From the NCBI GenBank assembly GCA_963667205.1, contig OY762959.1, positions 1,342,399 through 1,406,398 on the forward strand: a stretch of DNA of 64,000 nucleotides, given 5' to 3'. Position 1 is the stretch's first letter; the number at the start of each line of letters is the position of its first letter. Both the position numbers and the translations under genes were made by a program. The notes beneath the pieces were generated by a model, which was not told the origin of the DNA, did not search any database, and saw only the letters and a program-made list of their open reading frames with translations. This document shows, piece after piece, positions 1,643-50,594 of this stretch. The DNA is from Dehalococcoidia bacterium. GTDB taxonomy: Bacteria; Chloroflexota; Dehalococcoidia; SM23-28-2; RBG-16-64-32.

Positions 1643-3172
1643 ATGCGGATAGGCTTGGTTCTCACCGTTCTTGGCGCGTTGTCAGTCTCCCTGGCCGCCT
1701 GCGGTGAAGACGGCGAGGGCCCGACGCAGACGCCGTCGGACGAGCCATCGCTGGCATCGACACCAACGACCCTGCCAGATGATCCTGAGGTGCTGATGGC
1801 CAGGGCGCTGCGCACGTCGTTCCGGGAGCTCGGTGGCGTCGTCGATAACGGCTCCGATCCGACGGCCGTGCGCGCGATGGGCGAAACGGGCGACGAGCGG
1901 TACATCCCGGTTCTCATCGAGATCCTGCGCTTCTCGTGGCTTCTCTCGACCGCAACCGAAGAGGCGACCTACAGCTCGCTGGCCGCGTTGACCGGCGCGA
2001 CGTACGATGACCTGGATCCGCATCAGTTCGACTGGACCTGGTGGGTTGAGTGGCTGGGAACGCAACCGGAAGTCGAGCTGCCGCCGGGGTTCGCCCGCTG
2101 GAAGGGTGAGTTGTTCGGCCAGCTCGTCGACCCGCGCATCAACGAGTTCTTCGCCCGGGATGATCTGGCCTCGAACATCAGGATCGAAGAGATCGTCTGG
2201 GGCGGTGTGCTGCGAGACGGGATACCGGACCTGCAGAACCCGCCGACGCTTAAGGCTAGACACGCGGACTACCTGCAAGCGAACGACCGCGTGTTCGGCG
2301 TGTCCTTCAACGGAGAAAGCCGCGCCTACCCACTGCGGATCCTAAACGCCCACGAGATGGCCAACGACGAGGTGGGAGGCGTTCACTTCGCCCTCGCCTA
2401 CTGAACACTCTGCGGGAGTGGAATCGTGTATTCCACAGAGGTAGAAGGGGAGGTCCTCTCCTTCGGCACGTCGGGGCTGCTGTACCGCAGCAACAAGCTG
2501 ATGTACGATCGCGGCTCGGAGACGCTCTGGGTGCAGTTCCGGGGCACACCGGCCGTCGGCCCGCTGGTAGGCAGCGGGATCGAGCTCGAAGTATTGCCCG
2601 TAACCCTGACGACGTGGAGCGACTGGCTCGAGCTTCACCCAGAGACGACGGTGCTGGACAACGACACCGGCGTCTACCCCGCGGATGCGTATCTCCCGGA
2701 GTCCAACGAGAGATCGATCTACTATGACTACCGCGCAGATACAGGGCCTATCTTTCCGGTCCATGAGCGAAGCGAACTGCTGCCGGCGAAGTCGCTCGTG
2801 CTGGGGCTAAATATCGACGGGCTACCGAAAGCGTATCCGCTGGCGAGGCTCAACGAACACCCCGTCACCAATGATGCCGTCGGCGGCACCGACATCGTCG
2901 TGATCGCAACTGACGGCATGCGGCTGTACCTCGAGAGCATCCGAGGTGCACGCGCATACGAACGAAACGGCCTCTCGTTCTCCGGTCCGGCGAGCGAAGA
3001 CGGTGTTCTGAGCGTAATAGATGCGTCGGGCAGGCGCTGGCTGCTGCGGGAAGACGCACTCGTGCTCGAGAGCAACCCTTCGCAATCGCTGCCGCGCCTG
3101 GAGAGCAGGGTCGCCTACTGGTTTGGCTGGTTCCAGTACCATCCGACGACGGCGATCTACGAAGCGCCGTAG
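1643..3172 (+). CDS. Putative lipoprotein with UxxC motif (called DUF3179 from memory of that family's YCPLCGSG motif, Pfam not verifiable); single gene read through an in-frame TGA at 2402-2404 as candidate selenocysteine
   Basis: ORFs 1643-2404 and 2426-3172 are in the same frame, separated only by TGA plus 7 sense codons. The joined product reads ...VGGVHFALAY-U-TLCGSGIVYSTE..., placing TGA at the first Cys of a CxxC-type motif. Both halves carry the same internal repeat (AYPLxxLNxHxxNDxVGG). The N-terminus has a lipobox (LSVSLAAC). Confidence 0.6.
2408..2440 (+). promoter_or_regulatory. Candidate bacterial SECIS hairpin 4 nt downstream of the in-frame TGA
   Basis: ctct(2408-2411) pairs with agag(2437-2440). 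gtggaat(2419-2425) pairs with attccac(2430-2436). The apical loop is cgtg and a 7-nt 5' bulge lies between the two stems. Loop G/U falls about 22 nt after the UGA. Confidence 0.45.
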
Positions 3173-46709: not shown

Positions 46710-47939
46710 TCAGATCACGCCGTCGTTCATCAGCTCGACGATCTCCTCGTCGCGCAAACCGAGGCCAGAGAAGACCTCGAAGTTGTGCTCGCCAGCAGAC
46801 GGCGGTCCCGCGCGCACGCCGGTCGGAGTGCGGGACAGCTTGAGGGCGCTGCCGACGGTCTTGACCTTCCCAATCGGTGGGAACTCCGTCTCGACGATCA
46901 TGTCGCGCGCCTTTAGCTGAGGGTCCTCTACGGCTTCGGCGACCTCCTGCACGTAGTCCACCGCCACTCCCGCGCTTCGCAGCTGTGTGACGGCCGCCTG
47001 ACGCGTCCTGTCGGCCACCCACGAAGCCACAGCGGCGCGGATTCTGTCCCGGTTCGCCAGCTGCCATTCGGCGGTCAGCTGTTCAGCCGTCGCAACCAGC
47101 TCGGGATGCCCGATCGCGTTGGCCAGCTTGACCCAGTTCGGTCCCGGCGGCGCGGCGACGACTATCGGGCCGTCCACGGCTTGGAACGTCTGGTAGGCAG
47201 GAAGGCCCGCCGGATGCTGAACGCCGCTGCGTTTGACGGCAACACCGGTGTTCATGAGGAGCTCGGGGTAGCCATCCAGGGCGCCGAACAGGCAGTCCAG
47301 TAGCGAGATGTCCACCGCCTGACCTACTCCCGTGCGATCGCGATGCCTGAGCGCCGCGATCACGCCGACGGCAACGTGTAACCCCGCGAGGTAGTCCGAG
47401 ACCGAAATGCCGGCCCGCAGCGCCGGCCCGTCCGCTTCGCCGGTGACGCTCATGAAGCCGGAGCGCGCCTGAGCGACGAGGTCGTATCCCGGGAGATCGC
47501 CATCGGGGCCCGTCCTGCCGTACGCCGAGACCGAAGCGTAAACGAGGTCTGCTTTCGTGCTCTTCAGGCGCTCGTAGCCGATCCCGAGGGCTTCCGCGAC
47601 GCCCGCGCGGAAGCCCTCGACGACGACGTCGGTTTCACGGACGAGCTGATGAAAGAGCTCGACGCCGCGTGGTTGCCGCAGGTTGAGGGTGATCGATCGC
47701 TTGTTGCGGTTGAGGTAGAGCCACCAGGCGTTGAAAGGGACCGGCGCGCCGTCACTGAGTATCGCCGGCTGGCGTCGCGATTCGGCCGTCGTGGGGTCCT
47801 CAACCTTGATCACGCTGGCGCCGAGGTCAGCCAGGAGCATCGTGGCGTAGGGACCGGCGATGATCTGAGTGAGGTCGAGGACGTTGACGTCCGCCAGCGC
47901 CATCGGGCGCGGCGGCAAGTCCCCGTCGAGCTTATTCAC
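46710..47939 (-). CDS. CoA-transferase family III (CaiB/BaiF) protein
   Basis: VLDLTQIIAGPYATMLLADLGASVIKVE is the classic CaiB/BaiF N-terminus. Confidence 0.9.
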   Translation of the reverse strand: MNKLDGDLPPRPMALADVNVLDLTQIIAGPYATMLLADLGASVIKVEDPTTAESRRQPAILSDGAPVPFNAWWLYLNRNKRSITLNLRQPRGVELFHQLVRETDVVVEGFRAGVAEALGIGYERLKSTKADLVYASVSAYGRTGPDGDLPGYDLVAQARSGFMSVTGEADGPALRAGISVSDYLAGLHVAVGVIAALRHRDRTGVGQAVDISLLDCLFGALDGYPELLMNTGVAVKRSGVQHPAGLPAYQTFQAVDGPIVVAAPPGPNWVKLANAIGHPELVATAEQLTAEWQLANRDRIRAAVASWVADRTRQAAVTQLRSAGVAVDYVQEVAEAVEDPQLKARDMIVETEFPPIGKVKTVGSALKLSRTPTGVRAGPPSAGEHNFEVFSGLGLRDEEIVELMNDGVI

Positions 47940-47967
47940 TTCTGTCGGGCGCCGGCCGGGCCCTGGC

Positions 47968-48522
47968 TCAAGGGTCCGAGGGAGCTTCGGTCAGCGCGTC
48001 GATAGCTTCCTGGGTCGCGCGCTCACGCAGCTCTTCGGGGTTGCTCGTCAGGTTCCCTTGTTTCGGCGAGGGTTCGATGATGAGCGGGAGGTTGGCGATC
48101 CCCAGGGCCTTGGCCTGGGCCTTGGCGGCCCGCTCGAACACGTCGTGACTCAACGTTATCGTCGGCTTCCCGGTTAGTTCCATCGCTACGGCATCACGCA
48201 CGGTGGCCGCGGTACAGGAACCTCATATACATTCTCCGTTCACCACCACATCAACCTTGGCGACGAACTCCTGGAGCATCTCTTTCGGCACCGGCTTTCC
48301 AATGTGTGGCTTCTTCTGCCAGACGACTCCGCCAAGCTCAAACTTCTCCTCGAGGCCGCTGCGGATCTGCGACATCAGCGGGTACATCTCAATCGTGCCA
48401 TCTTCCAGGGTGTGTCCCCAGCCATCGAGGAAGCCGACTACCTTACTGTTCAAGCTGCCGGGCCTCGAGGCCAGCTGCGTTTCCGTTGACTTGAACTGTG
48501 GTTCGGGTACTAAGACCTGCAC
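47968..48522 (-). CDS. UGSC-motif small protein; single gene read through in-frame TGA at 48223-48225 as candidate selenocysteine; GrdA-like motif spacing
   Basis: ORFs 48223-48522 and 47968-48201 are in the same frame with TGA between them. The joined product reads ...VVVNGECI-U-GSCTAATVRDAVAMELTG.... This resembles glycine-reductase selenoprotein A around its CxxU (ECFVUTAAGAMDLE). Confidence 0.55.
48189..48209 (-). promoter_or_regulatory. Candidate SECIS hairpin about 12 nt downstream of the UGA in the UGSC gene
   Basis: On the minus strand: cggc / cac / loop cgtgc / gtg / (at bulge) / gccg. The apical loop contains GU as in the hairpin at 2408-2440. It is weaker than that one. Confidence 0.3.
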
Positions 48523-48523
48523 T

Positions 48524-49618
48524 TCAGCCTCCTTTGCTTACCTGGGCCTCTAGCGGCCTCGTCACCGCAAAGCCTCCGTAAGTGCCCCATCCGGGAAGGA
48601 CGGCGCACCACCATTGTCCCGAGCCGCCGGTTACCAGCACGTGGATATCGTCCGGGCTATCGACTATCGGGAGCATTTCATTGTCGCTGCGGTCTCTCAC
48701 TGATGGAGCGCCGTCGACGCCCCCCCAGTGCGTTTTCACATGATCGGTCTCGTCCAGGATCTCCATCTCTCGCAGTTGACCGAGGTTCCAGCGCGCGTTC
48801 TCGAACAGGTACTCCTTCACGTCGCTGCGCTTCCAACCAGCGTCGGCCAGGGTCCGGGCCGGCTTCGGTGCGATGATGACCATGTACTGGCCGGCCGAGT
48901 GAAATGCGATCAATCCCAGAGCAGGTATCGACTGCGCCAGAATCTTCATGATGCGTTTGTCGTCGCCGGGGATGTACAGCGCGTGAGGAGGGTCGCAGGC
49001 GAACGTCGTGACCGCACTTGACGCCGCATCGACGCCGTAGTCGGTGTGGAACGGTTCCCACGGCGAGTCCTCGACGTTCTCGGCGACGCAGAACGAGAAC
49101 TTGCCGGGGTGGCCGAGCGTCGCCATGTCGGTCTCGCCGGGAAAGCCTCTGCCGAGGTTCCAGAGGATGAGCCGGATCGCCCGGCCGATCGTCGCGTTGA
49201 CGCGAGACCCGCCGGCGAAGACGTTCTCCCTGTAGTTGAACCCAAGGTCCGTGACCGCGGGCCCGCTGACGATGAGAAGCGGTGCGCAGGGATTGGTGGT
49301 GCACTGCACTCCGTTCAGGTTGAAGCGCTCCTCCAGCATGCACTTGACGCCCTCTATCACGACCGGAACGTACTCCGGGCGGCAGCCCGCCATCACACAG
49401 TTGATCGCGATCTGCTCGACCGTCGCGATCCCCAGCGCCGGCGGGATGACACCGATATCTTCGTCCCGGCCACGCCCGAGGTACTCTACTATCTCCCTTA
49501 CGGCTTCGGCGGTGGGAGGGGATACCGGCAGACCGTCGGTCCAGCCGGACTCATACGCTAGCTCCTGCCACGCGTCGTGATCGGCTACTTCGATAGACCG
49601 GGCGGCTGGAGTGCTCAT
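48524..49618 (-). CDS. Hypothetical Cys-rich protein (364 aa), between trxB and the UGSC selenoprotein gene
   Basis: ORF with coding-like composition. Cys pairs NCVMAGC and CTTNPC. Possibly glycine-reductase component-B-like; that is a speculative recollection. Confidence 0.5.
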   Translation of the reverse strand: MSTPAARSIEVADHDAWQELAYESGWTDGLPVSPPTAEAVREIVEYLGRGRDEDIGVIPPALGIATVEQIAINCVMAGCRPEYVPVVIEGVKCMLEERFNLNGVQCTTNPCAPLLIVSGPAVTDLGFNYRENVFAGGSRVNATIGRAIRLILWNLGRGFPGETDMATLGHPGKFSFCVAENVEDSPWEPFHTDYGVDAASSAVTTFACDPPHALYIPGDDKRIMKILAQSIPALGLIAFHSAGQYMVIIAPKPARTLADAGWKRSDVKEYLFENARWNLGQLREMEILDETDHVKTHWGGVDGAPSVRDRSDNEMLPIVDSPDDIHVLVTGGSGQWWCAVLPGWGTYGGFAVTRPLEAQVSKGG

Positions 49619-49631
49619 ATTGTCGGCTCGA

Positions 49632-50594
49632 TCATGACAGTGATTGCCTTTCGTTCGCCTGGCCGTTGCGGAGGTAGGCCAGCGCGTTCAGCGCCGCTGT
49701 GGCGCCATCGCCCGCGGCCGATACGAGCTGCCGGGACGAATAACGGCGGATATCTCCCGCAGCGTAGAGGCCCGGCTGCCCCGCGCTGAGGTCGTGGTCG
49801 ACGGTGATGTGCCCACGCTCGTCGGTCGTGACGACGTCGCGGATAGGCCCGATGTTCGGCGTGAGACCGATGAAGATGAAGACTCCACTGACCGGGATCG
49901 TCTCATCCTTGCCCGAACCCGCGTCCGCGATGGCGATCTCCTGCACGACGGTGTCGCCACGGATCTCCTTGACGACGCTTCTGGTGTGTACGTGAATGTT
50001 CGGCGTCTCGTTCACGCGTTCCTGCAGCACGGCTGCCGCCCCCAGACCTTCTCCGCGAATCAGGAGGTGGACATCGCTGGCAAAGGTGCTCAGAGTGAGC
50101 GCCTCGTCGCAGGCGCTGTCGCCGCTTCCTACCACTGCCACGGGCAGACCCTTGAGCAGGGGGCCGTCGCAGGTGGCGCAGTCGGACACGCCGTGGCCGA
50201 AGAACTGCTCCTCACCGGGGATGCCCAGCGACTGCCGGGTCGACCCCACGCAGATGATGACTGCTCGTGCGCGGACGGCACCGTCCGGAGTCGCGAGTTC
50301 CCAGTGCCCGTTGACGGCGCTCAGCGCTTCGACTTCGACTCCCATCCTCAGATCTGCGCCGGCGTCCAGCAACTGCTCGAGCATGTTCGTGGCAAGCTCG
50401 TGACCGGCAATCGGGCCCGATGTCCCGGCGTAGTTCTCAACGTGTTCGGCTGTGGCGATCTGGCCGCCTGGACTGCTTTTCTCGAAAACGATGGTTTGTG
50501 CACCCCCGCGCTGAGCGTATATCGCAGCTGACACGCCCGCGGCGCCGGCGCCGATTATCGCGATTTCAGTATCTTCCAAAGATTCCGCCCGCAC
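49632..50594 (-). CDS. trxB: Thioredoxin-disulfide reductase
   Basis: FAD motif IAIIGAGAAG, redox-active CATCDG, NADPH motif VVGSGDSA. Confidence 0.85.
   Translation of the reverse strand: MRAESLEDTEIAIIGAGAAGVSAAIYAQRGGAQTIVFEKSSPGGQIATAEHVENYAGTSGPIAGHELATNMLEQLLDAGADLRMGVEVEALSAVNGHWELATPDGAVRARAVIICVGSTRQSLGIPGEEQFFGHGVSDCATCDGPLLKGLPVAVVGSGDSACDEALTLSTFASDVHLLIRGEGLGAAAVLQERVNETPNIHVHTRSVVKEIRGDTVVQEIAIADAGSGKDETIPVSGVFIFIGLTPNIGPIRDVVTTDERGHITVDHDLSAGQPGLYAAGDIRRYSSRQLVSAAGDGATAALNALAYLRNGQANERQSLS

Follow-up and report, generated by a model that had tools for sequence, protein, structure and literature searches.

Does the TGA codon that interrupts a small gene in the genome of a Dehalococcoidia bacterium end a protein, or does it encode selenocysteine (Sec)? 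The gene lies in a stretch of 64,000 nucleotides (nt) of contig OY762959.1 (assembly GCA_963667205.1, positions 1,342,399 to 1,406,398; hereafter the window, whose own numbering is used throughout). Direct translation of the minus strand from 48522 to 47968 gives 185 codons in one frame with a single in-frame stop. This internal stop is a TGA at 48225-48223, where the local reading is ...VDVVVNGECI-(stop)-GSCTAATVRDAVAMEL... and, over a longer stretch, ...AKVDVVVNGECI-(stop)-GSCTAATVRDAVAMELTGKPTITL..., and the frame is open from 48222 onward. A preliminary description, made from the sequence alone, had noticed that two open reading frames (ORFs) of the minus strand, 48223-48522 and 47968-48201, share a frame with a single TGA between them, and had read the joined protein as ...NGECI-U-GSCTAAT...; translation bears out both observations. 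The gene is a genuine, mis-annotated member of the known UGSC selenoprotein family.

The joined protein of 184 amino acids, with U replaced by C, matches the Pfam model of this family (PF24696) with E=1.3e-34 and 120.2 bits against a cut-off of 25. The alignment extends from residue 3 to residue 173 (profile positions 2-163 of 172) and hence runs across the TGA, and the N-terminus VQVLVPEP aligns with MKLVLPT in homologues. The U-G-S-C motif of the window aligns with CGSC of the Cys homologues P0001 and P0002 and with U-GSC of other Sec-type genes. The search with a UGSC model proposed in the preliminary description therefore succeeded, and its claim of a UGSC-family selenoprotein is borne out by the match across the TGA and by the 18 homologues with TGA and five with a Cys codon described below. 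The origin of the family in marine metagenomes, which it had also mentioned, is confirmed as well: in the Sargasso Sea and Global Ocean Sampling (GOS) data the UGSC-containing protein is among the most abundant selenoprotein families, with 255 Sec forms and 21 Cys forms in GOS, and its function is unassigned (PMC2398784). Descriptions of it as a selenoprotein abundant in aquatic samples go back to about 2005-2008, and it is also covered in PMC1976440 and in the reviews PMC9312934 and PMC13188914.

Searching proteins by a word index gave two Cys homologues of full length, with CGSC, and four proteins whose last residues are precisely ...VVVNGEC[AV]; the contigs of these four truncated proteins carry an in-frame TGA followed by GSCT..., and each had been split by gene callers. 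Scanning the species representatives of GTDB contributed 14 further UGSC loci, which belong to SAR202/Dehalococcoidia, Methylomirabilia, Gaiellaceae, other Actinomycetota and Alphaproteobacteria. The closest relatives of the window gene are found in SAR202/Dehalococcoidia metagenome-assembled genomes (MAGs), and the homologues in GTDB reference MAGs are at most 52% identical to the window protein. Besides the window, the Sec column is TGA in 18 genes (L001, L003, L005-L015, L022, L026 with two tandem copies, L027 and L030) and TGT or TGC in five (L004, L016-L018 and L025). The preliminary description had allowed that homologues might lack Cys or Sec at this position; both are clearly present. 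The subgroup motifs, taken in part from an alignment of 40 sequences that was checked by eye, reveal an additional Cys at position -2 (C-x-U) in the group of the window and in L022/L030 (GLCA-U), which is absent from the GEAA-U and GEGL-U groups; the EC-x-U pattern stressed in the preliminary description is thus a trait of some subgroups only.

The public gene calls of the 2.66-Mb source contig (ENA ERZ28669063, ctg54560) cut the window gene into pieces of 99 and 71 amino acids, and such calls split every Sec-type UGSC gene in the same way, into an N-terminal piece of ~92-131 and a C-terminal piece of ~71-83 amino acids, or leave the fusions truncated (calls compared for L021, which is the window region, and for L001-L003, L005, L006, L022-L024, L026, L027, L030 and L031). 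As the calls break at the UGA, the family is systematically under-annotated. TGA also serves as the ordinary terminator here, both of the UGSC gene (47970-47968) and of the gene directly upstream of it (48526-48524), which indicates local recoding and no alternative genetic code. The stop codon of the upstream gene lies 1 nt from the GTG start of the UGSC gene, and this indicates translational coupling of the two. Two homologues are unusual in other respects. L026 (GCA_039744215.1) contains two tandem Sec-type UGSC paralogues (L026:7393 and L026:7920) after one copy of the partner gene described below, each with its own, different hairpin following the UGA; hydantoinase A/B genes lie directly upstream of this locus and a thioredoxin-reductase (TrxR)-like gene lies downstream. 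The AT-rich homologue P0008 (179 amino acids, 52 member sequences, ENA) has Trp at the Sec/Cys column (...GEAI-W-GSC...); the codon may be a real TGG, or else a TGA that the depositor's pipeline translated with genetic code 4.

The model of Zhang & Gladyshev (2005) for the bacterial selenocysteine insertion sequence (SECIS) reportedly calls for an apical loop containing G or GU roughly 16-37 nt after the UGA. RNAalifold and pair counting over 13 close Sec-type sequences place a family hairpin at nt 18-23/31-36 from the U of the UGA, with the loop CGUGNNN. In this register 97% of the cells are paired, a share that sliding the 3' arm lowers to 14-53%, and pair 18/36 covaries, being C-G in eight sequences and G-C in five. 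Within the hairpin the third codon positions hardly vary (entropy 0-0.39 bits), whereas codons with four-fold degeneracy in its immediate surroundings are free to change (1.3-1.7 bits). The more divergent Sec genes L022/L030, L026b and L027 differ in stem sequence, but their apical loop likewise contains GU and starts 21-24 nt from the UGA. Of the five Cys-type genes only L004 keeps the hairpin, which the other four have lost: the TGT at L004:423 and the following 45 nt contain the canonical hairpin GCCGCGUC-CGUGCUU-GACGCGGU (-13.4 kcal/mol), which suggests a "fossil" SECIS element and a recent change from Sec to Cys. Comparable hairpins arise in about 30% of the recodings of any UGSC peptide tested, and the family itself has hairpins in 16 of 18 cases. 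Since GC-rich codons for the peptide ...A-(S/T)-V-x-D-A... favour hairpin formation, folding energy is no usable criterion. Judged from sequence comparison, then, the SECIS signal is comparative and lies at the level of the family, and the hairpin of the window taken alone is not significant.

That hairpin consists of a lower stem (nt 16-20/34-38), a 2-nt AU bulge, an upper stem CAC/GUG and the loop CGUGC (48202-48198), which starts 20 nt past the UGA. It is the minimum free energy (MFE) structure in contexts that begin at or after the UGA. The preliminary description had reported a "weaker hairpin" with a CGUGC loop, and this was accurate: the structure is present at 48210-48188. Rfam has no family on the hairpin, and a search of 47900-48600 at E<=10 gave nothing relevant.

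The gene upstream of the UGSC gene encodes what appears to be its regular partner. Some 20 of 22 UGSC loci, nearly all that have enough flanking sequence, contain the partner gene next to the UGSC gene, in either order: it lies downstream in L001-L005, L007-L014 and L016-L019, and upstream in the window, L022-24, L026 and L030/31. In four proteins the partner is fused C-terminally to the UGSC domain, namely P0078, P0097 and P0099 of the Cys type and L027 of the Sec type, the latter verified through its TGA. When 1.84 billion representatives were searched exhaustively with a profile, 6,205 clusters (50% identity) were obtained at E<=0.001, mostly of the partner family. The best 150 of these 6,205 clusters include 35 full fusions, 37 proteins that start just past the Sec/Cys column and 62 partner-only proteins. 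The 37 late-starting proteins bear the signature of Sec-type fusions cut by gene callers, which brings fusion-type proteins to 72 among the best 150 representatives. UGSC/"Unknown_1" fusion proteins appear in Figure S1A of the GOS study (PMC2398784), and the partner of the window is presumably this "Unknown_1" domain.

The partner protein has no match in Pfam or NCBIfam even at E<=10 and no fold match in the PDB. Its homologues number at least 6,905, all of them annotated as "hypothetical" and none with a Pfam domain, and two cysteines, Cys79 (MAGC) and Cys177 (FCxAEN), are 96-97% conserved. This group of proteins seems well worth defining as a new family. The homologues P0149 and P0269 start just after the position of Cys79, which raised the idea that this residue may be Sec in some homologues; we rejected it, as P0149 begins at a contig edge. 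Six further proteins, P0158 (717 amino acids), P0179 (741 amino acids), P0185, P0223, P0238 and P0279 (about 710 amino acids), consist of two tandem partner domains with no UGSC domain, each copy with TDG(L/W/F)P...PPT and MAGC. These tandem copies hint at a dimer or pseudo-dimer.

For the fold of the UGSC domain we relied on an AlphaFold2 (AF2) model of the Cys homologue P0001, which is 43% identical to the window protein, made from an alignment of 31 rows (predicted local distance difference test, pLDDT, 90.5; predicted template modelling score, pTM, 0.86). In the model a beta-alpha unit occurs five times, with a small hairpin in addition, so that the domain is predicted to be a Rossmann/flavodoxin-like, five-stranded parallel alpha/beta structure. 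The Sec-equivalent Cys102 sits between the strand 94-100 and the helix 103-118, with Cys105 in the first helical turn, and this predicted placement is as expected for a CxxC-type redox centre. The literature called the fold "likely" thioredoxin (Trx)-like (PMC2398784), and the UxxC motif is indeed typical of Trx-like selenoproteins. However, the thioredoxin fold has a mixed sheet in the order beta-alpha-beta-alpha-beta-beta-alpha, with which the parallel-sheet model of P0001 does not agree. The published guess is thus left unsupported, and we regard a Trx-like UGSC protein as very unlikely.

Together these observations make it probable, in our judgement, that the window encodes a recoded UGSC selenoprotein that acts with its coupled partner as a two-part enzyme. 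Several points weigh against this conclusion. Two loci, L006 and L015, have no adjacent partner gene. A TrxR-like flavoprotein gene upstream of the partner, which may belong to the same system, has homologous neighbours in L016, L017 and L026 and is thus present in just four of about 22 loci. A search of the literature turned up no report of a function and no experiment for any member of the UGSC family. Against the NCBIfam model NF041046 ("UGSC family (seleno)protein") the window protein scores 78 bits, below the equivalog cut-off of 125; P0001, a Cys homologue, and P0099, a fusion, also fall short of it, and the score places the window protein in a divergent branch of the wider Pfam family. 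The remaining points concern the hairpin and the Sec machinery. The stability of the window hairpin does not stand out from dinucleotide shuffles (z=0.31), and 83% of the synonymous recodings of the window peptide fold at least equally well. In the sub-window nt 10-48 the hairpin is not the MFE structure (pair probability about 0.45), and with 30 nt of upstream sequence added it is out-competed in silico, although this upstream sequence would be unwound by a ribosome positioned at the UGA. The window hairpin is also the weakest of the set, with two of the six consensus pairs broken (C·U and A·A), and it needs a shifted register. No selA, selB, selD or tRNA-Sec gene lies within the 64-kb window.

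The state of the hairpin could mean that the gene is of the Sec type by descent and that its SECIS element has decayed, so that read-through would be poor or absent and the gene would be turning into a pseudogene. The window is alone among the 13 close Sec-type sequences in having two consensus pairs broken, the stability of its hairpin is the lowest of the set except for L015, and the large share of recodings that fold equally well or better points in the same direction. However, L026a, which comes from a different genome and belongs with its peptide GSCTAATVGDAV to the same "TAATV" subgroup, shares the bulged architecture, and its pair 18/36 has switched from G-C to C-G in a compensatory manner. 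This suggests that the window hairpin is a maintained variant and not a product of decay. The downstream frame and its conserved residues are intact, and the GU loop lies at the usual distance from the UGA. We therefore consider decay unlikely.

An alternative explanation is that the TGA is a true stop within a gene that is split or has become a pseudogene, yielding a 99-residue peptide and perhaps a separate one of 71-77 residues. The two ORFs of the public annotation, a hairpin indistinguishable from chance and a window that lacks the Sec machinery would all agree with this. Nevertheless, the TGA occupies the Sec/Cys column of the family, as it does in the 18 other genes from several phyla, and the 84 codons past it are intact and conserved, with the Pfam alignment continuing through them to residue 173. 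The two halves are predicted to form one domain, with the break falling between a strand and the following helix. The GTG at 48201, which an ORF finder takes as a start, is a conserved Val codon in the loop of the hairpin and has no Shine-Dalgarno sequence. Moreover, the window contains a second candidate Sec gene. Its ORFs 1643-2404 and 2426-3172 on the plus strand join through a TGA at 2402-2404 (...HFALAY-U-TLCGSG...), and the joined product, with U replaced by C, matches DUF3179 (PF11376) across the TGA with E=3.9e-75; a hairpin with a GU-containing loop follows directly at about 2405-2442 (-26.6 kcal/mol, z=-2.97). DUF3179 (UxxC/T) is already catalogued as a selenoprotein family, and this candidate lends indirect support to Sec use by the organism. 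A true stop thus seems to us highly improbable. The window has no tRNA gene of any kind, and no Rfam family was found across its whole length at gathering thresholds.

The recoded UGSC gene and its partner stand in a row of genes on the minus strand, whose coordinates are collected below.

Coordinates of the UGSC locus and its neighbours in the window
Feature	Position	Strand	Description
CoA-transferase family III gene	46710..47939	-	28 nt downstream of the UGSC gene; PF02515, E=3.5e-108; functional link not established
UGSC-family selenoprotein gene	47968..48522	-	184 amino acids including Sec100; GTG start 48522-48520, TGA stop 47970-47968; PF24696 match
SECIS-like hairpin	48188..48210	-	nt +16 to +38 from the U of the UGA; matches the family position
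In-frame UGA read as selenocysteine (U of C-I-U-G-S-C)	48223..48225	-	same codon TGA in 18 homologues
Conserved partner gene	48524..49618	-	364 amino acids; directly upstream of the UGSC gene; Cys79 (MAGC), Cys177 (FCxAEN)
Shine-Dalgarno sequence AAGGAGG	48528..48534	-	5 nt before the GTG, within the 3' end of the partner coding sequence; read from the sequence
Thioredoxin-reductase-like flavoprotein gene	49632..50594	-	320 amino acids, CATC; 13 nt upstream of the partner gene; Pfam Pyr_redox_2

The translation of the TrxR-like gene contains SDCATCDG. Against the thioredoxin-disulfide reductase model TIGR01292 it scores 306 bits over positions 2-300 of 300, below the cut-off of 343. The other neighbours of UGSC loci are variable catabolic genes, encoding CoA-transferase III (also in L013, L014 and L017), acyl-CoA dehydrogenase, amidohydrolases, hydantoinase A/B (hydantoinase/oxoprolinase), RidA and MaoC, together with IclR regulators and an ABC peptide-type transporter. 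The all-against-all clustering of neighbourhoods, which included stop-to-stop and antisense ORFs, was used for the TrxR-like, CoA-transferase and ABC counts alone. The window as a whole has 63% G+C and consists mostly of paralogous catabolic families: three hydantoinase/oxoprolinase genes, two amidase, two AtuA, two MmgE/PrpD and two thiolase-like genes, two CoA-transferase III and two methylmalonyl-CoA-mutase-like genes, a luciferase-like monooxygenase gene and two SBP_bac_5 ABC systems. Together with the SAR202/Dehalococcoidia origin of the nearest UGSC relatives, this gene content would suit a SAR202-like member of the Chloroflexota.

From gene linkage, natural fusions and the predicted fold we propose the following mechanism. 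SelB and tRNA-Sec would recode the UGA at 48225-48223, guided by the GU-loop hairpin that starts about 13 nt downstream, as the comparison with the family suggests. The Sec residue would lie in the predicted loop between the strand VDVVVNGEC-I and the N-terminus of the helix GSCTAA..., where U100 and C103 may cycle through a selenenylsulfide, and C98 (C-x-U) may act as an additional thiol in some subgroups only. The linkage and the fusions suggest that UGSC does not work alone but would supply the redox function, as a subunit or domain, in a two-part enzyme with the 364-residue partner. Thioredoxin reductase serves the protein A of glycine reductase, and this is our model for the step of electron donation: more speculatively, reducing power from NAD(P)H might arrive through the upstream TrxR-like flavoprotein with its CATC motif, a candidate electron donor.

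A broader interpretation, which we hold with slightly more doubt than belief, would take UGSC as the selenium-bearing part of a widespread and undescribed two-part enzyme, of which the partner family of roughly 350 amino acids may be the catalytic part and which some lineages might supply with a dedicated TrxR-like re-reductant. Such an enzyme would be an analogue of the protein A/protein B pair of glycine-type reductases in aerobic aquatic heterotrophs such as SAR202-like Chloroflexota, with a substrate that is possibly amide- or CoA-linked. The selenoprotein call itself is routine, since catalogues have listed the family for some twenty years and the Pfam model readily picks up the gene. Nevertheless, the calls are split in the window and in all related contigs examined, so that the selenoprotein goes uncounted. 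As UGSC is among the most abundant aquatic selenoprotein families, the linkage to the partner, the fusions, the predicted non-thioredoxin fold and the recurrent TrxR-like neighbour provide a testable framework for its function.

The preliminary description had also pointed to a Sec context like that of GrdA, the selenoprotein A of glycine, sarcosine and betaine reductase. If the UGSC protein were a divergent GrdA, it would carry a substrate-derived group on its selenol. A local likeness exists: over 31 columns both have a strand, then C/U-x-x-U/C, then TAA at the start of a helix. As homology, however, the resemblance did not hold. The GrdA model PF04723, a search with which the preliminary description had suggested, has no match at E<=10 among seven UGSC members. 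We also used a GrdA proxy sequence, which matches PF04723 over the whole model (E=2.9e-80). Comparison of the UGSC profile with this proxy by hhalign gave a probability of 0.39% (E=0.15 for this single comparison) over those 31 columns, and BLASTP of UGSC against the proxy found no match. The PDB matches of the fold search include no GrdA structure. Nor does the suggested pairing of U with U across a gap stand; the best local alignment instead sets C-F-V-U-TAA of GrdA over U-G-S-C-TAA of UGSC, a mirrored redox pair. A small selenoprotein beside a TrxR-like gene does recall the grd operons, as is generally known (see also PMC13188914), but the GrdA motif is given as CxxU (PMC13188914), in contrast to UxxC (plus CxU) in UGSC, and the genes of the window include no homologues of grdB, grdC, grdD or grdE. 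On the evidence of these sequences, membership in the GrdA family is rejected, and we regard a divergent GrdA as extremely improbable.

How does the locus compare, then, with the systems it resembles? With the known UGSC family (PF24696, NF041046; Zhang & Gladyshev) it shares the U-G-S-C motif at the aligned column, homologues with Sec and Cys, and an occurrence in aquatic metagenomes, and its Pfam score is five times the cut-off. It differs in the extra Cys at -2 (C-x-U-x-x-C), in the variant, bulged SECIS-like hairpin, and in the gene order, with the partner first where UGSC first is commoner. Compared with the UGSC/"Unknown_1" fusions of the GOS study, the window has two separate, translationally coupled genes, and the association with the partner (about 20 of 22 loci) appears as the rule and not as a rare fusion event. 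The Trx-fold UxxC selenoproteins (Trx-, Prx- and DsbA-like) share the UxxC motif at the N-terminus of a helix and, presumably, the selenenylsulfide chemistry, whereas the UGSC sheet is predicted to be parallel and Rossmann/flavodoxin-like. With GrdA, finally, UGSC has in common that both are small redox selenoproteins with Sec and Cys separated by two residues, followed by TAA at a strand-helix junction, and encoded beside a gene of the thioredoxin-reductase type; in UGSC, however, the order of the motif is mirrored and the partner is unrelated to any described family. A plausible functional analogy with GrdA would be that UGSC acts as a carrier linking a reductase system to a catalytic partner.
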